Positions 45,765-63,476 of a stretch of DNA of 64,000 nucleotides are shown one piece after another. Source of the DNA: Parcubacteria group bacterium Gr01-1014_30 (GTDB lineage: Bacteria; Patescibacteriota; Minisyncoccia; Minisyncoccales; 2-12-FULL-40-12). The position numbers and the translations under genes are program-made. The notes below the pieces were generated by a model, which was not told where the DNA came from, made no database searches, and worked only from the letters and a program-made list of their open reading frames with translations. Within the stretch, counting starts at the first letter, position 1; the number at the start of each line of letters is the position of its first letter. Where the stretch lies: NCBI GenBank assembly GCA_007376185.1, contig VMFS01000001.1:94206-158205 (forward strand), read 5' to 3'.

Positions 45765-46130
45765 ATGAAAAGCATTTTGTTAGTAGAAGACGATCCATTT
45801 TTGATAGACATCTACAGCACCAAGCTGAAAGAGGCCGGTTTTTCAGTTGACGTGGCTCCCTCTGGCAAGGAGTGTTTGCAAAAACTCAAGCAAGAACTTC
45901 CCGACCTCTTGCTTTTAGACATAGTTTTGCCCGAAGTTGACGGCTGGGAAATTATAAGAAAAATCAAGGAAGACGCCAAACTCAAGGACTTAAAAGTCGT
46001 TGTTCTGTCAAATCTCGGGCAAAAGGACGAAGTTGAGAAAGGACTGGCCTTTGGCGCCGTAAAATACCTTATCAAAGCCCACTACACGCCGTCTGAAGTA
46101 GTTAACGCGATAAAAGAGATAACTGTATGA
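45765..46130 (+). CDS. stand-alone receiver domain protein within the pil operon
   Basis: ILLVEDD...LLDIVLPEVDGWEI...K receiver fold. Paralogous to 8208-8570 and 59222-59608. Confidence 0.75.
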   Translation: MKSILLVEDDPFLIDIYSTKLKEAGFSVDVAPSGKECLQKLKQELPDLLLLDIVLPEVDGWEIIRKIKEDAKLKDLKVVVLSNLGQKDEVEKGLAFGAVKYLIKAHYTPSEVVNAIKEITV

Positions 46131-47194
46131 ATTACCAAGACCAGATAAAAAAGTTATTAGAACACGCCGTTAAAGAGCAGGCTTCAGACCTTCACTTGTC
46201 TGTCGGTCACCCGCCTACTTTGAGGATAGCCGGCCGACTTTTCCCTTTGGCGAAAGTAATGAAAGAGTTGTCTCCAGCTGACACTCAAGGGCTTGCTTTT
46301 GCTTTATTGCAAGAGGAGCAAAAGCAAAGGTTGTTGTCGGTGAAAGAACTGGACTTTTCCTACGAGCTTCAAGAGAAATCAAGGTTCAGGGTAAATATCT
46401 TTTTGCAAAGAGGAAACTTTGCGGCCGCTTTAAGACAAGTGCCAAGCCGCATTCCGACGATTGAAGAGCTGAATCTGCCGCCGCTTTTGCATAAATTCAC
46501 CACGCCGAAACAGGGTTTTATCCTCATTACGGGACCTTCAAGCCAAGGTAAGTCAACCACCTTGGCCGCCCTGCTTGACGAGATAAATCACACGAGAACC
46601 GACCACATCATCACCATTGAAGACCCTATTGAGTATATTTTTGAGGCTGACCGCTGCATCATTGACCAAAGAGAGGTTTACCAAGACACGCTTTCTTTTG
46701 ATAGGGCCCTGAGGTCAACCTTCCGTCAAGACCCCGACGTCATTATGGTGGGTGAAATGCGCGACGCTGAAACCATGGCCATTGCTTTGCAGGCCGCAGA
46801 AACAGGGCATTTGGTTTTTTCCACTCTGCACACCAACTCGGCCCCTCAAAGCATACACAGAATTGTGGGGGCGTTTCCTCCAGAATATCAGATCCAGATT
46901 AGGGCTCAGTTGTCAGGGGCTCTTTTAGGCGTAGTTTCTCAGCGGCTGGTTCCCAGAATAAAGGGCGGTCTTATCCCGGCTTGCGAGGTAATGATTACCA
47001 CCCCGGCTGTCGCCAACCTTATCCGCGAAAATAAAATTCACGAACTGCCCTTAGTTATAGAGACGTCGGCTGAAGCGGGAATGACGTCTTTAAACAAGTA
47101 CTTGGCGAACTTGATAAGGACTAAAGAAGTAGCTTTGGAAAACGCCCTGAGTTATTCTCTGGACCCGGTAGAACTAAGGACTTTGGCAAGATGA
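46127..47194 (+). CDS. pilT: twitching-motility/retraction ATPase PilT
   Basis: Walker A ILITGPSSQGKSTT. 355 aa with no zinc motif. Confidence 0.8.
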   Translation: MNYQDQIKKLLEHAVKEQASDLHLSVGHPPTLRIAGRLFPLAKVMKELSPADTQGLAFALLQEEQKQRLLSVKELDFSYELQEKSRFRVNIFLQRGNFAAALRQVPSRIPTIEELNLPPLLHKFTTPKQGFILITGPSSQGKSTTLAALLDEINHTRTDHIITIEDPIEYIFEADRCIIDQREVYQDTLSFDRALRSTFRQDPDVIMVGEMRDAETMAIALQAAETGHLVFSTLHTNSAPQSIHRIVGAFPPEYQIQIRAQLSGALLGVVSQRLVPRIKGGLIPACEVMITTPAVANLIRENKIHELPLVIETSAEAGMTSLNKYLANLIRTKEVALENALSYSLDPVELRTLAR

Positions 47195-47280
47195 TTACGA
47201 AATTACGAATTTTCTACGAAAGTACGAAAATTCTTAATTTTTTTTCGTATTTTCGTATTTTTTTCGTAATTTCGTAAGGC
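47195..47280. repeat. imperfect 86-bp palindrome made of 'tacgaaa' heptads; same sequence as the inverted repeats flanking the GxxExxY gene at 61.6 kb
   Basis: Left arm TTACGAAATTACGAA..TACGAAAGTACGAAAA; right arm is its reverse complement. Fills the pilT-pilC intergenic space exactly. Confidence 0.7.
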
Positions 47281-47281
47281 T

Positions 47282-48487
47282 ATGAAATTCAACTACCAAG
47301 CCCGAACAAAGACTGGAGAAATTCAATCAGGCCAGGTAGAAGCGGTTTCTCGGGATTCGGCTCTTAATCTTTTGAGGTCGCACAAGCTTTTCATTACCGC
47401 CTTGGAAGAGGTCGCCGCCCCTTTTTACGCGAGACGTCTAAAATTCTTTGACAGGATTCCGGCCAAAGAAATCGTTATTTTCTCCAGTCAGCTGGCCGTT
47501 ATGTTTAAATCGGAAATATCTCCGGTTGAAGTTTTGGGCACGCTTGCCAAGCAAGTTAAAAATGAACAGCTCCGAGAAAAAATTCTTGACATGGTTGAAA
47601 AAGTGGAAGGAGGAAGCCCTCTCTCAAATACGTTCGCTCTTTATCCTGAGGTTTTCAGCCCATTTTACGTTAATATGGTTAAAAGCGGGGAAGCAACGGG
47701 AAAGCTGTCAGAAATCTTCTCATACCTGGCCGATTATCTGGAGAAGGAATACGAGTTTAACAGAAAGGTTAAGGGAACGATGATTTACCCCGTTTTTCTT
47801 TTGGCCGTTTTCCTGGCCGTAATAGGCATAATAATATTTTTCGTGGTGCCCCAGCTCTCTCAGTTTTTAGCCGAAGCGGAGATAGAGCTTTCTCTTCTCA
47901 CCAGGTTTCTGCTCGGCGCTTCTAAGTTTTTAAGACAATGGTGGTTTCTTTTACTTTTACTTCCTTTGGGGCTGGCCGTTTTTCTACGTTTTTATTTAAA
48001 AACCAAAGAAGGCAAGGCCTTTTTTGATAAAATGATGCTCAAGGTGCCTGTCTTGGGAGGTTTCTTAAAAAGTATTTATCTTTCTCGCGTATCTCTTAAC
48101 CTTTCAACCTTGATATCAGGGGGTTTGCCCATTGTGCAGGCGCTGCAGGTTACCAGCAACGTTGTCGGCAACGAAGTTTACAAATCAATTATTACGGAAA
48201 CCGCGAAAGAGGTGAGGACTGGCGAGTCTATAAGCGCGACCTTGGCAAAGTATCCTGAAGAGTTTTTCGCCCTCTTCGTTCAGATGGTGGCAGTGGGTGA
48301 AAAAACCGGCCGGCTAGATTCTTCTTTAAGAAGTACGGTTGATTTTTACCAAAAGGAGGTTGAGCGGGAACTAGATAACTTTATGAGAGTTTTGGAGCCG
48401 GCTTTGATTGTTTTTTTCGGCCTTTTGGTTGGCGCTTTGATGACTGCGGTGATTATTCCAGTTTACCAGATAATAACCAGTTTTTGA
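47282..48487 (+). CDS. pilC: type IV pilus inner-membrane platform protein PilC (GspF family)
   Basis: Duplicated T2SF domain layout with three TM segments. 401 aa. Confidence 0.8.
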   Translation: MKFNYQARTKTGEIQSGQVEAVSRDSALNLLRSHKLFITALEEVAAPFYARRLKFFDRIPAKEIVIFSSQLAVMFKSEISPVEVLGTLAKQVKNEQLREKILDMVEKVEGGSPLSNTFALYPEVFSPFYVNMVKSGEATGKLSEIFSYLADYLEKEYEFNRKVKGTMIYPVFLLAVFLAVIGIIIFFVVPQLSQFLAEAEIELSLLTRFLLGASKFLRQWWFLLLLLPLGLAVFLRFYLKTKEGKAFFDKMMLKVPVLGGFLKSIYLSRVSLNLSTLISGGLPIVQALQVTSNVVGNEVYKSIITETAKEVRTGESISATLAKYPEEFFALFVQMVAVGEKTGRLDSSLRSTVDFYQKEVERELDNFMRVLEPALIVFFGLLVGALMTAVIIPVYQIITSF

Positions 48488-52183: not shown

Positions 52184-55328
<3,145 letters not shown>

Positions 55329-57821: not shown

Positions 57822-59210
57822 TTATCCTGACCCCTTAATTGGTAGTTCAATCCAGAAAGTTGTTCCTTTACCCCAGCCTTCAGATTCGGCCCAGGTTCTG
57901 CCTCCGTGGGCTTTGACAAATTCAAAGACAATACTTAAACCAATTCCCCGTCCCGGGCCGTAAAGTTTTTTTGCCGCCGCTGACCTTTCAAAGAGTTTCC
58001 CCCGCAAAAAATAATCTATTTCTTCTTTTTCCATTCCAATACCCGTGTCAGTAACCCCAATTTTTAACCACCGCCCTTTTCCAGAAGGGCGGGGCCCAGC
58101 CCATTTAGAAATGGGCTGTGGTTCTTCATTTTCCACTTTTAATTTAACAGTCACGCCTCCCCGATTCGTGTATTTAACGGCATTATTAACCAAATTCCAA
58201 ATTGCCTCTTTTATCATGCTTTTGTTCAACATTAAGGTTGGGAGTTTTTCGCCAGTACCGGCAGCTAGCTCATACTTTAAATAGATATTTTTTTGCTCTG
58301 CTTCAAGTTTCAATTCTTCAATTACGTTTTTAATGAGAGCTTCAATTTGGCAATCTTCTAAATCCAAAGATTTTTTCCCCACCCTCAGTTCCTGGATGTA
58401 TAATAAGTTTTCCATTAAAGAATAGAGATTATCAACTAATTTTTTTATTTCAATAAGTTTCTCCTTGATAACCGGATTTTCCTCTCTGCCGTAAGTTCCT
58501 TCTAAAATTCTTTCCAAATATCCTTTAATTGGGCCAATTGGAGTTCTTAGGTGATGCTGGAGAGATAACAAGAGTTGGTCTTTTGCCGATGCCAATTTTC
58601 CCCATTCTTCAGCCAAACTTTCGGCTTCCTTTCTCTTAGCTTTCTCTTTGGTTAAAGAATGACCAAAAATAAAGGACACTAAAAATAAAAAAGCAAGTAC
58701 GGGACCCAGCCACAAATATTCACTTTGCCCGGTTATTATTGGTAAGAAGACGTACAAAACCGTAATGGCAACAACTAACAACGCAAAACTAACCAAAGTA
58801 TAAAGAGCCCGCGAGTGGCTTAGCAAGGAACTTTTAAGTGATTTTTCAAATAAAATTGCCGTTCCCAACCCGGCATAGATAAAAAGCAGCATAAAAAAGA
58901 TTGCTTCTTGAGGATGCATCCTCGTTAAAAAGTTTTTTTCATCTTCAATAATGAAAATGCCCACAATGAGAGCTAGACCCAAAATGGAGGAGGCAATTAA
59001 CGGGACTTTAATTTTTGGAGAGACACTATTGGAAATAGCGACAATGAAATAAAAAAGCTCCAAGATAACAATAATTGTTAGCGAAGCAGTTATTTTCATC
59101 CATTCTGGACCTGCCAGCAAGAGGGGGTTTGAGTAAAAATATAAAGAGCCCGACCATGAGATGATAATAATAGCGAAGATGAGAAAATGGAGATTGCTAA
59201 TAAAGTTCAT
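57822..59210 (-). CDS. multi-TM sensor histidine kinase inserted in the atp operon
   Basis: HisKA HHLRTPIGPIKGY. ILEGTYGR is shared with the kinase at 6535-8193. HATPase_c GIGMEKEE...GRGIGL. Confidence 0.8.
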   Translation of the reverse strand: MNFISNLHFLIFAIIIISWSGSLYFYSNPLLLAGPEWMKITASLTIIVILELFYFIVAISNSVSPKIKVPLIASSILGLALIVGIFIIEDEKNFLTRMHPQEAIFFMLLFIYAGLGTAILFEKSLKSSLLSHSRALYTLVSFALLVVAITVLYVFLPIITGQSEYLWLGPVLAFLFLVSFIFGHSLTKEKAKRKEAESLAEEWGKLASAKDQLLLSLQHHLRTPIGPIKGYLERILEGTYGREENPVIKEKLIEIKKLVDNLYSLMENLLYIQELRVGKKSLDLEDCQIEALIKNVIEELKLEAEQKNIYLKYELAAGTGEKLPTLMLNKSMIKEAIWNLVNNAVKYTNRGGVTVKLKVENEEPQPISKWAGPRPSGKGRWLKIGVTDTGIGMEKEEIDYFLRGKLFERSAAAKKLYGPGRGIGLSIVFEFVKAHGGRTWAESEGWGKGTTFWIELPIKGSG

Positions 59211-59221
59211 TTAGACAGAGT

Positions 59222-59608
59222 TTATTTTAGCCCTTCTCGCATTATTTCGGTTAGTTCCTTTAGTGAGTATTGAGCTTTAACCAAGATTTTGTCAATTCCT
59301 TCTTTGTTAAGCTCTTCGTTTGATTCAGCGCTACTGTAGTTGGTTAAGGCATAAATTTTAAGAGTTTTCGTTTCAGGGTATTTTCTGACTTCTTTTAAAA
59401 TCTCAATGCCGTTGATATCTGGCAGAATTAAATCCAATAAAATTAAATCTGGTTTCTCTTTTTTACCCTCTCTGATTTCTTGCACCATTGCAATTGCCTT
59501 CTTTCCCAAGTCCAAAATTTCAATTTCAAATCCGGCCATTGGAAAGGTCTCTTTAAAAAGTTTAATGGTTGGAACATCGTCTTCGATTATGAGAATTTTC
59601 GGTTTCAT
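59222..59608 (-). CDS. stand-alone receiver domain protein
   Basis: ILIIEDD...LLDLILPDINGIEI...K receiver fold. Confidence 0.8.
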   Translation of the reverse strand: MKPKILIIEDDVPTIKLFKETFPMAGFEIEILDLGKKAIAMVQEIREGKKEKPDLILLDLILPDINGIEILKEVRKYPETKTLKIYALTNYSSAESNEELNKEGIDKILVKAQYSLKELTEIMREGLK

Positions 59609-59712: not shown

Positions 59713-61200
59713 CTAGAAGGGGCGGTATAAAATTTCTTTGACTGTTGGAGTAATCTCTTTGATAAAATCTTTAAGTTCGTCTAAATTTTTTATTTTTTCT
59801 ACCTCTGCTTCTATTTGCATAAAAACCTCTTTATAGCTTTTCAAAATTGTATCAATCTCTACTTTCATTATATTTTCGGGTTTATCATCCCAAAAACCAG
59901 AAATCAGCAGTCCAAAAAGAAACAATTGCAGGGCTCTGGGAATTGTTGCTTTCGGCCCTTGGTTAAAAAGAATCTCCACTTTCCTGCCCAGCTCTAAAAT
60001 TTTTTGAGTCTCCAGAGATAATTCTCCGCCAAACTGAGCGATTTCCGTTACTCTTTGATATTCAACCATTTTTTTTCTTATCCAACCGGCTAAAGCCTTG
60101 TCTAATGGCTCTTTGGTTTGATTGCCCACACGAGAAACCGAAAGGAAAGCGTTGATGGCCGGCAGTTTTCCTTTTCTGAAGTCATTAATATCAAAAAAAA
60201 TGTGGCCGTCGGTCATTGCCATCAGATTTGTTTGGATGAATCCAGAGATGTCGTTTTCCAGGGTTTCGGCAACTGGCAGTGCGGTAATGCTTACCCCTTC
60301 CTGCCCATCCAAATTTTTAGTGGGGGATTTGATATTTCCTGCTCTTTCCAGTAAGGCAGCTTGGATGTGAAAGATATCTCCGGGATAGGCGCTTCTCCCG
60401 GGCAGCCTTTTTATTAATAGAGAGATTTCCCGGTAAAATTTTGCATGACTGGTTAGGTCGTCGAGAATAATTAATACATTTTCTCCCTTGTCGCGGAAGT
60501 ATTCGGCAATTGCCATTCCAGAAAAGGGGGCAAGGTAGTTTATGGTTGACGGTTTTTCCGAGGTGGCAACGACCATCACTGTTTTGTCAAAAACGCCCAT
60601 TTCTTTTAGATAATCCTCCACGGCTTTTATTGCCGAAATTTCTTTTCCAATTCCGACATAAACGGAAACTACCCCCCTTTTTGCCTGATTGGAGATGGTT
60701 TGCAAAAGAAGAGTGGTTTTGCCTGTTTTGGCGTCTCCAATAACCATCTCTCTTTGGCCATAACCAATGGGCACCAATAAATCCACCACCATTACGCCGG
60801 TCTCCAGAGGTTTTCCCACCCTTACCCTTTGAGTAATACCGGCAGCCTCTATTTTTATCGGCAAATATTTTTTCTCTCCCAATATTGGTCCCAACCCGTC
60901 TATCGATTCACCGAGAGGGTTGATTATTCTGCCCAAGAGCTTCTGGGAAGCCGGAATTCTAAAAGGATTTTTAGTCCTGGATACCCCTGTCCCGACTTTT
61001 AATTTTGTAACATCAAACATTAAAATTTCGGCTACCTCTCTGTCCAAACCATGTACCACGCCTCTTTCCTCGTTTTCGGTAATGACCATTTCTCCCAATC
61101 TTAAGGAGGGGAGGCCTGAGATGTGAGCTAAATAATGGTTCAATCCTACGACCCGACCTATTTCTGCTGTTTTTTCTAAATGTTCTCTAAAATTCGCCAT
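59713..61200 (-). CDS. atpA: F-type ATP synthase alpha subunit
   Basis: P-loop GDAKTGKT. 495 aa. Confidence 0.9.
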   Translation of the reverse strand: MANFREHLEKTAEIGRVVGLNHYLAHISGLPSLRLGEMVITENEERGVVHGLDREVAEILMFDVTKLKVGTGVSRTKNPFRIPASQKLLGRIINPLGESIDGLGPILGEKKYLPIKIEAAGITQRVRVGKPLETGVMVVDLLVPIGYGQREMVIGDAKTGKTTLLLQTISNQAKRGVVSVYVGIGKEISAIKAVEDYLKEMGVFDKTVMVVATSEKPSTINYLAPFSGMAIAEYFRDKGENVLIILDDLTSHAKFYREISLLIKRLPGRSAYPGDIFHIQAALLERAGNIKSPTKNLDGQEGVSITALPVAETLENDISGFIQTNLMAMTDGHIFFDINDFRKGKLPAINAFLSVSRVGNQTKEPLDKALAGWIRKKMVEYQRVTEIAQFGGELSLETQKILELGRKVEILFNQGPKATIPRALQLFLFGLLISGFWDDKPENIMKVEIDTILKSYKEVFMQIEAEVEKIKNLDELKDFIKEITPTVKEILYRPF

Positions 61201-61543
61201 GATTTGAAAGAAAGAACTTGTCTATTTCTCCTGCCAATGAGAAATCGCGCCAATTCCCCTGGTATTCTATTATGGCGCCAGCAACAATTTTCGGATTTAT
61301 GGTAAGATTTAAAATAACTTTCTGACCCGATTCTTTCTCAAGCCATTCACTAATTTTATTAAGAAAATTGTCTTTAGGAGAAAACGCAATTTCCAACTTA
61401 ATCTCAGGCAGAGACTTGAGCTTTTTTTCCAGCTTGAGGTCGACCTCATTTTTTAATTTTTTTTGAGCAATTTCATCTAAAACCAATATTAAATCTTCTC
61501 TCGTCCTTATTTTTTTTACAAAATCTCCAGAGACCTTTTTCAT
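61187..61543 (-). CDS. atpH: F-type ATP synthase delta (OSCP) subunit, C-terminal domain only (118 aa)
   Basis: LNLTINPKIVAGAIIEYQGNWRDFSLAGEI matches the delta C-terminal consensus. Confidence 0.6.
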   Translation of the reverse strand: MKKVSGDFVKKIRTREDLILVLDEIAQKKLKNEVDLKLEKKLKSLPEIKLEIAFSPKDNFLNKISEWLEKESGQKVILNLTINPKIVAGAIIEYQGNWRDFSLAGEIDKFFLSNHGEF

Positions 61544-61550
61544 ACACTCC

Positions 61551-62058
61551 TACGAAATTACGAAAATAATACTAAAGTACGAAACTCACTTATTTTTTAT
61601 ATTAAATTTACTACCCTTTTGAATTTTACGCCCTCTTTTGTAAAATTTACCATTATTCCTAGTTTGGATCCGCTTGCTTTTAGATAAGCATATACTTGCT
61701 CAATATGTCTTCGGGGAAATTTGTTACCCTTTTTAAACTCCAATACCACTTGATTTTCTATAACAAAATCTAAGAAGTAACCTCCAATCCCCTTTCTTTT
61801 ATAAATCAGTGGAGCGGCAACTTGTTCCTTATATCTTAACCCACAATTTTTAAGTTCTACGGCAACAGCTCTTTGATAATATTTTTCCTGGTAATCACTA
61901 CCTAATTGCCTATATATCTCAAAAAGAATGCCAATAATTTGATAACATAACTTAGGATAAATTAAATCATTTCTTTTAAGATAAGGTTTATTTTCCATTT
62001 TTTATAGTGGAAACCTAAATTTTCGTACTTTCGTAAAAAATTTCGTAATTTCGTAACC
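61551..62058. mobile_element. about 510-bp mini-element: GxxExxY gene bounded by 40-bp terminal inverted repeats of 'tacgaaa' heptads
   Basis: Inverted repeats at 61551-61587 and 62017-62058 are reverse complements of each other. They match the palindrome at 47195-47280. Confidence 0.65.
61597..61998 (-). CDS. GxxExxY-family protein (PD-(D/E)XK nuclease-like)
   Basis: IIGILFEIYRQLGSDYQEKYYQRAVAVEL...GYFLDFVIENQVVLEFK...KLGIMVNF follows the GxxExxY family pattern. Confidence 0.7.
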   Translation of the reverse strand: MENKPYLKRNDLIYPKLCYQIIGILFEIYRQLGSDYQEKYYQRAVAVELKNCGLRYKEQVAAPLIYKRKGIGGYFLDFVIENQVVLEFKKGNKFPRRHIEQVYAYLKASGSKLGIMVNFTKEGVKFKRVVNLI

Positions 62059-62696
62059 TTAGAAGATTTCCCTTTTTGCTTTTTCCAGGGCTTCCATTAC
62101 CAATTTCTCGTGGTCAGAAAGGTCAATCGCTTTACCTATTGTTTTTTTAGCCACCTTCGAAAGTATCTGATAAATTTTTTGGTCTATTTCTCCAATCTCC
62201 TTTTTTTTATAATCTTCAATCTCTCCTTGTACTTCTTCAACCTTTTTGTTAATGGCTTCTCTGGTTGATTGCAAGGTCTGAGCCGACGTTTTTAAATACG
62301 CCTCTTGGATTTTAACAAATTTTTCTTCAGCCGCCCGATTTAATCCCAAAATTTTATTTTCCGTCCCTTCTAAAATTATATTTTGCACGTCTTGAGCAGA
62401 TTTTGATAGATTAGCAGCTTCCTTAGTTATGCGTTCTGCGAATTCTCCAAGCACTTTTTGAATCTCCTGATTTCCGTCTGCAAATTTGCTTTTGTAGCTT
62501 TTTATGATTTCTTGGGTAGCTTCCTGGAACGCATCTCTGAACTCCCTGACGTTTTTTTGCAACTCTTTTTCATTTCTTCTTGACGGTCTTCTTGTCAAGA
62601 AGAAGAAGAGTCCAAGTAAAGCCACAGCCTCGGCGGCTCCAAGAAAGAAAATAATGAAGGTTAGAAGGTCTGAACATTCAACTAACAACTCAAACA

Positions 62697-62697
<1 letters not shown>
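62059..62697 (-). CDS. atpF: F-type ATP synthase b subunit (long form)
   Basis: N-terminal TM helix followed by about 170 aa of charged helix. Confidence 0.6.

Positions 62698-63476
<779 letters not shown>

Follow-up and report, generated by a model that had tools for sequence, protein, structure and literature searches.

Two copies of a miniature inverted-repeat element, with and without a GxxExxY nuclease gene, at operon junctions of a Parcubacteria genome: probable nuclease-driven, homing-like spread

What is a gene for a small nuclease of the GxxExxY family, bracketed by inverted arrays of a seven-nucleotide repeat, doing inside an ATP synthase operon, and why does the same pair of arrays recur with no gene between them in the spacer of pilT and pilC? 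Both arrangements are found in a 64-kb stretch (the window, meaning the whole of the DNA analysed) from Parcubacteria group bacterium Gr01-1014_30, a member of the candidate phyla radiation (CPR). The answer that we favour with moderate confidence is that a miniature selfish DNA element with nuclease-driven, homing-like spread is present in the window twice. Mobility of the element is well supported; that the nuclease recognises the heptads and makes the initiating break is our inference. The parts of the two copies, followed by their host neighbours, are as follows.

61544-62058, minus strand: whole inserted segment of about 515 nt, from the atpF stop codon to the atpH start codon, where relatives have 1-7 nt
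62019-62058, minus strand: 5' arm in transcript sense, GGTTACGAAATTACGAAATTTTTTACGAAAGTACGAAAAT, with four exact TACGAAA heptads, abutting the atpF stop codon
61597-61998, minus strand: GxxExxY / PD-(D/E)XK nuclease gene, 133 aa, assigned by profile matches, between the atpF-like open reading frame (ORF) and atpH
61551-61584, minus strand: 3' arm in transcript sense, TTTCGTA-type, with three exact heptads and one degenerate
61544-61550, minus strand: GGAGTGT directly after the 3' arm, the atpH ribosome-binding region, continuous with the terminal ...CGTAGG of the element
47195-47280, no strand: gene-less palindromic copy of 86 nt, with arms at 47195-47231 and 47241-47280, filling the pilT-pilC spacer
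62059-62697, minus strand: atpF-like gene, the upstream host neighbour, with weak subunit-b matches and with position and C-terminus conserved in relatives
61187-61543, minus strand: atpH (delta subunit), the downstream host neighbour (PF00213 / TIGR01145, OSCP match)
46127-47194, plus strand: host pilT (PF00437, E 7e-48)
47282-48487, plus strand: host pilC (PF00482, E 6e-60)

The gene-bearing unit is bounded by terminal inverted repeats. On the plus strand of the atp site, exact TACGAAA heptads start at 61551, 61559 and 61578 and a degenerate TACTAAA at 61570, while the minus strand carries TACGAAA at 62021, 62029, 62041 and 62049. Linkers of 1, about 3-6 and 1 nt separate the heptads within each arm. 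These positions and the inverted repeats of 15-17 nt (93-100% match) bear out the earlier note on this DNA, which had described mutually reverse-complementary heptad arms bracketing the gene. The palindrome at the pil site sets three exact heptads and one TACGAAT opposite four TTTCGTA and extends from the pilT stop codon (47194) to 1 nt short of the pilC ATG (47282). Across the window TACGAAA is found 27 times against an expectation of 10.2 +/- 3.7, a count reached by 0 of 100 shuffles, and 15 of the 27 fall in the atp and pil loci, the sole clusters with at least three exact copies. Linker bases are common to the arm at 62019-62056 and the arm at 47195-47231, which indicates that the two loci are homologous copies of one element and not merely heptad-rich sequence; the earlier description of the same arms fused into an 86-nt palindrome in the pilT-pilC spacer therefore stands.

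The sole ORF of the element encodes the PD-(D/E)XK nuclease, and no recognised transposase (DDE, HUH, serine or tyrosine) is present in it. The ORF is a full-length member of both PF13366 (PDDEXK_3; E 6e-30, 104.4 bits against a Pfam cut-off of 22) and TIGR04256 (GxxExxY; E 2.6e-30, 105.2 bits against an NCBIfam cut-off of 35), and with its atpF-like and OSCP neighbours this confirms that a 133-aa GxxExxY gene lies between atpF and atpH. The catalytic-type residues E38, D77, E87 and K89 are invariant among homologues, so that the window nuclease has the conserved acidic and lysine active-site residues of the PD-(D/E)XK fold. An AlphaFold model is confident (pLDDT 90.5); the gene is intact, its protein is predicted to be well folded, and the nuclease is under purifying selection in many lineages. 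The GxxExxY family has 15,146 representatives at 50% clustering, many of which (P0187, P0188, P0197 and others) are about 260-275 aa long with two GxxExxY domains in tandem, natural single-chain dimers. These fusions suggest that a dimer is the working unit. Searches for the nuclease gave no sequence relative in the PDB, no meaningful PHROG phage-family match and no relatives in viral contigs. The literature that we found lists PF13366 only as of unknown function with multiple transfers, and it lends no support to the earlier statement that rRNA intervening sequences are the main known setting of GxxExxY genes.

Comparison with relatives indicates that both copies arrived by insertion. The atp operons of the nearest relatives were reached through atpH homologues; two other loci (L001 and L002) represent the same population as the window, carry an identical element and are uninformative on polymorphism. 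In L201 (atpH 73% identical) 7 nt separate the conserved atpF end, ...KKEIF*, from the atpH ATG, and in L202/L203 and L205/L206 (Parcubacteria DG_74_1; 66-68% identical) 1 nt lies between the atpF end and the atpH ATG. The pilT-pilC spacer measures 3-6 nt in three of the five closest relatives (L217, L218 and L220; pilT 77-79% identical), and the remaining two have an unrelated 55-nt hairpin and a 304-nt spacer with a degenerate arm remnant, respectively. The comparison of orthologous atp and pilT-pilC junctions, set beforehand as a check, thus finds empty junctions in the closest relatives at both sites, and both window copies are accordingly insertions. Occupied and empty alleles of the same site coexist among relatives, as they do for homing genes.

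One occupied allele is found in a more distant host. The L207 nuclease, flanked by TACGAAA arms, lies at the same atpF-atpH junction and is 80% identical to that of the window, against 66% for atpA, 60% for atpG, 45% for atpH and 37% for atpF. Since an accessory gene is more conserved than atpA and the sites of closer relatives are empty, the element has been transferred horizontally into the same junction. This incongruence of element and host at one site in distant hosts is a further property of homing genes. A decaying copy is also present: in L208, which comes from the sample that also yielded L207, the element is found again with about 40 nt deleted from within its gene. At the pilT-pilC junction, which in the window holds just the palindrome, gene-bearing elements are found in L132, L145, L148 and L156.

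Other relatives carry unrelated G+C-rich hairpins at these junctions (L204 2911-3000, L219 2872-2926 and L061 2226-2329; atpF-atpH, pilT-pilC). These stop-start junctions seem to receive palindromic insertions in general.

The layout recurs throughout a family of related genes. A profile built from 39 homologues retrieved 80 metagenome loci, in which 84 related genes were counted. In 53 of these (63%) a 6-mer is present at least twice upstream and its reverse complement at least twice downstream, compared with 3 of 108 control ORFs (3%) on the same contigs; the median best inverted-repeat score is 15.5 for homologues and 7.5 for controls, and most other homologous genes show degenerate versions of the flanking repeats by eye. 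The motifs differ between elements (TACGAAA, TACGAAT, TACTAAT, TACAAAT, TACGGAT and ATGCGGA), and the same motif is always found in both arms of one element. Heptads are lineage-specific, with motif type associated with protein similarity (permutation p 0.0005; 57% vs 53% identity). Within a single PrgI/type-IV-secretion-like cluster (L131 2150-4600), three GxxExxY elements sit at three successive junctions, and no two of them share a heptad (TACGGAT-type, TACGAAA and ATGCGGA-type).

The elements fit their junctions closely. The spacer on each side of the gene has a median of 39 nt and the gene is almost always co-oriented with both neighbours. Elements begin at or beside the upstream stop codon and finish with ...GTAG(G) a few bases before the downstream ATG; a GTAG lies at most 16 nt from that ATG in 42 of 61 unique related elements. 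The same junctions recur in different hosts, namely rpsG-fusA, pilT-pilC, PBP-greA, PrgI-type genes and hydrogenase-hypA, and a given junction (rpsG-fusA, pilT-pilC or PrgI-next) can be held by different protein clades with different heptad types. As a side observation, P0003 and P0018 have N-terminal extensions (..LRNYE..) that come from the translation of TACGAAA arms.

Gene-less copies are widespread. A strict arm-pattern scan of species-representative genomes returned at least 118 stretches, with the copy count for the source genome covering the window only. Among the matches listed, most are from CPR (Saccharibacteria and the Uhr-, Doudna-, Falkow-, Moran-, Portnoy-, Magasanik- and Parcubacteria), with several per genome, and at least 42 are clear palindromes of the same four-plus-four heptad design. 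One Uhrbacteria genome (MGEP01) has at least five copies with a common loop sequence and different flanks, so that near-identical gene-less copies have multiplied at unrelated sites of a single genome; the window itself shows one. A GxxExxY gene is attached to the arms at three of these loci (L068, L076 and L077), and L061 has a palindrome-only copy in atpB-atpE, another atp-operon junction. The genes flanking palindromes are co-directional in 25 cases, convergent in 6 and divergent in 6, which is near expectation for any intergenic feature and uninformative. The search for further repeat copies that the earlier note had called for thus finds many per genome in many CPR genomes, among the matches listed. 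[quoted passage not shown]

Repeats related to the heptad also occur as tandem arrays. One-strand tandem TACGAAA(N) arrays of up to 37 units are found in metagenome-assembled genomes (MAGs) outside CPR (Bacteroidetes, Longimicrobium), and a Magasanikbacteria locus has 26 units opposite 4 inverted ones (array coordinates: L034 252-533, L051 6703-6797, L064 7434-7536 and L107 6568-6863). The arm motif may expand like a minisatellite, or the tandem arrays may be unrelated. In the window, about 4.5 tandem copies of ATTTCGA, one base off the element heptad, lie at 52705-52756 and are followed by a hairpin with an 8-bp stem; the array is in frame within an NAD-ligase ORF (52190-54244) and codes for 11 residues in a loop that is seemingly longer than usual.

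Co-directional genes also flank distant members of the family (27-33% identical) that cultured bacteria carry on plasmids and chromids. Members in Bacteroidota, Sphingomonas and Gemmatirosa have the same layout with unrelated 7-9-mers, as listed here with further genera.

Bacteroides finegoldii, radA-next junction: inverted arrays of CACAGAGG
Bernardetia: inverted arrays of CACAGAG
Bacteroidetes MAG (L010): inverted arrays of CACTAAG
Sphingomonas, fabD-fabG junction: inverted arrays of ACGCGAAG
Gemmatirosa: CGCGGAT palindrome just downstream of the gene
Treponema: 11-nt inverted repeat only
Fusobacteria and Persicobacter: direct, not inverted, flanking repeats

In Sphingomonas parapaucimobilis (plasmid/chromid, L215 1183-1611) the GxxExxY gene sits between fabD and fabG in the fatty-acid synthesis operon, and the C-terminal extension annotated for it (..SSRLRVNQR..) comes from the translation of a ACGCGAAG-type arm.

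The mechanism that we propose for homing-like spread has two forms of the element. The autonomous form, of about 0.5 kb, consists of one promoterless GxxExxY nuclease gene with about 38 bp of four heptads on each side, inverted, and the non-autonomous form has both arms joined as a palindrome. Each occupies precisely the space between one operon gene's stop codon and its successor's ribosome-binding site. The gene is co-oriented with the operon and would thus be transcribed by read-through, in keeping with a consensus scan that predicts no promoter on its strand within the element, and the downstream gene would keep its ribosome-binding site, making insertion tolerable even in essential operons. 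The nuclease, acting as a multimer, would bind the heptad arrays and make the DNA break that starts movement, and host recombination or repair would complete the copying. The element could then be copied into related genomes in a homing-like manner through conserved flanking genes or pre-existing arms, with palindromes mobilised in trans. A homing-like route between genomes is favoured because the same junctions beside conserved genes recur.

Several observations weigh against this proposal. The main gap is the spread of palindromes to unrelated sites in one genome, which points to a transposition-like step that a hydrolytic nuclease alone does not explain: to our knowledge PD-(D/E)XK enzymes hydrolyse DNA and do not carry out strand transfer, which leaves the integration step unexplained. 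A nuclease gene was not found in the stretches from the palindrome-rich Uhrbacteria genome MGEP01 among the matches listed. In L207 the arms are doubled on both sides, the left arm being duplicated along with 9 nt of host flank, which simple arm-guided gene conversion does not predict. Occupied and empty sites compared by eye show no consistent direct repeat that would represent a target-site duplication, and the empty junctions, short and sequence-variable, show no conserved target, so that no classical homing target stands out. The association of heptad with protein has clear statistical support but is modest in size, the direct repeats in Fusobacteria and Persicobacter depart from the inverted layout, and our literature search returned no biochemical activity for any GxxExxY protein.

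One alternative is a true cut-and-paste or copy-and-paste transposon, with the GxxExxY nuclease as sole transposase, the heptad arrays as terminal or subterminal binding sites and the palindromes as its MITEs; we regard this alternative as unlikely, although it has more in its favour than the two that follow. Inverted ends of repeated short motifs fit it, multi-site ends of this kind being known from Tn7, Ac/Ds and En/Spm, as do the palindrome-only copies with identical interiors at unrelated sites of one genome. Complex arrangements fit it as well: in L207 a whole element with its own arms appears to be nested in or beside a second arm pair, and in L077 a gene with one arm adjoins a full palindrome. 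However, the lack of a visible target-site duplication counts against it, and strong recurrence at shared host junctions in different genomes is more readily explained by recombination through conserved flanks than by transposition. Moreover, we know of no PD-(D/E)XK protein that performs strand transfer alone; TnsA of Tn7 requires the DDE protein TnsB.

It is less probable still that the arms act in RNA, as an intercistronic processing or stability element (such as an RNase III site resembling rRNA intervening-sequence stems), a terminator or an attenuator, the nuclease gene being only a passenger carried in the loop. The palindrome is predicted to form a highly stable RNA hairpin (-37.1 kcal/mol, z = -7.1 vs shuffled sequence), the long-range stem is present in the minimum-energy fold of the atp transcript, the elements are always in transcribed operons and co-oriented, and the 5' terminal CCTAC can pair with a GTAGG overlapping the downstream ribosome-binding site. 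Against this, arm-to-arm complementarity across palindromes is 94% at heptad positions but 24%, the chance level, in linkers, and the arm mismatches of gene-bearing elements include 76 that are G·U-compatible on the transcribed strand compared with 100 on the other strand. With heptads complementary, linkers at chance and no G·U bias, the conserved feature is the heptad itself in inverted arrays, and the repeats look like protein-recognised DNA sites at the ends of the element rather than a selected RNA stem. A selected RNA stem is ruled out as the main constraint on these two grounds. An intrinsic terminator was also rejected: consensus scans are negative at both elements on the transcribed strand, no terminator-like U tract is present, and the neighbours are co-directional and tightly spaced. 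The palindrome gives only sub-threshold microRNA noise in Rfam, and the pil site has no rRNA match. Finally, an RNA role leaves unexplained why the heptad tracks the protein lineage, why the element is transferred horizontally and why close relatives lack it.

We consider it very improbable that the nuclease is a host-serving defence or repair enzyme, with the flanking heptads as operators for a regulator and palindromes elsewhere as further operators of its regulon: direct heptad repeats at 8-bp spacing do resemble some operator designs, such as CtsR boxes, and the purifying selection on the nuclease fits a host gene, but the best PADLOC defence match is not convincing (E 1.6e-4 over 40 residues), the closest relatives do not carry the element, a pseudogene copy exists (L208), the occupied junctions are functionally unrelated (atp, pil, str operon, greA, hydrogenase and fab), and the heptad varies between elements even of a single contig (L131), unlike the behaviour of a regulon.

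The homing-like element that we prefer resembles several known systems without matching any of them. Like REP/REPIN-RAYT systems (REPtrons), it has a single gene between inverted short repeats, the repeat is scattered as intergenic hairpin-forming doublets, and repeat sequence and enzyme lineage change together. Yet RAYTs are HUH/Y1 enzymes (IS200/IS605-like), whereas Pfam and NCBIfam return only PDDEXK_3 / GxxExxY here; REPs are single imperfect palindromes rather than arrays of four heptads; and RAYTs are vertically inherited and largely immobile between genomes, in contrast to horizontal transfer and presence/absence at operon junctions in the case of the element. Free-standing homing endonuclease genes share with it the same position beside conserved genes in distant hosts, conservation exceeding that of host genes, empty alleles in close relatives and degenerating copies. 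Those that are known lack inverted arms of repeat arrays and gene-less palindromic derivatives, however, and their targets are conserved, whereas the empty junctions of the element are 1-7 nt long and variable. GxxExxY is not among the characterised homing families, and homing enzymes of the PD-(D/E)XK type, I-Ssp6803I for example, are encoded in introns.

Bacterial MITEs and their parent insertion sequences (Correia/NEMIS, ERIC and RUP) resemble it in their terminal inverted repeats, in existing as autonomous and as gene-less forms, in their many near-identical copies within a genome and in their intergenic, co-transcribed positions. They differ in that the element has no DDE or other known transposase and no visible target-site duplication, is about 0.5 kb in total and ends in tandem heptads. 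The rRNA intervening sequences of the Leptospira, Coxiella and Salmonella type also place a small ORF within complementary ends in an essential transcript, with sporadic distribution, but they occupy rRNA helices; the two window copies lie between protein-coding genes and not in rRNA, which excludes this class for them, and the arms have no signature of selection for RNA pairing. The ORF family of rRNA intervening sequences, which we take to be the four-helix-bundle family PF05635, is different from GxxExxY. Unlike Cas4/RecB-type PD-(D/E)XK proteins, the nuclease is a minimal core of about 130 aa without Fe-S cysteines or CRISPR context and has 13-17% identity to them. As the element is without one defining feature of each analogue (the enzyme class, the armless state of homing genes or the target-site duplication), it is a member of none.

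The surrounding atp operon has features of its own. A response regulator (59222-59608) and a histidine kinase (57822-59210) lie on the minus strand between atpA and atpG, an arrangement that is also present in relatives L201-L206 and not in L207. Upstream of atpF, a 256-aa ORF (62697-63467, minus strand) has no Pfam or NCBIfam match, and its last 43 residues have a weak likeness to ATP synthase subunit c (PF00137, E 0.006). Up to the end of the window no canonical atpB or atpE can be seen.

A widespread family of miniature mobile elements seems to include this one; in the literature on GxxExxY proteins, PF13366, rRNA-intervening-sequence proteins and Patescibacteria MITEs we did not find such an element described. 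As a wider and tentative proposal, to which we give rather less credence than to homing-like spread in the window, GxxExxY proteins may be the mobilising enzymes of an unrecognised class of prokaryotic elements, each lineage recognising its own 7-9-nt motif, present four times per inverted end, while the elements and their palindromes would colonise junctions of stop codon and ribosome-binding site in many phyla; no autonomous element powered solely by a PD-(D/E)XK nuclease would have preceded it. The finding would give a concrete role to a widespread family of unknown function (PF13366 / TIGR04256), that of nuclease of a 0.5-kb selfish element, and would account for a group of conserved palindromes found in the very small CPR genomes. 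It would also show a mobile element living harmlessly in essential operons (ATP synthase, rpsG-fusA and fabD-fabG) by precise insertion ahead of the next ribosome-binding site, directly after a stop codon, and by riding host transcription. The pairing of each nuclease lineage with a matching heptad suggests small nucleases with programmable-looking recognition of repeat arrays, which would be of interest for mobile-DNA biology and enzyme engineering, and the elements could be used as markers of recent gene flow among uncultured lineages.
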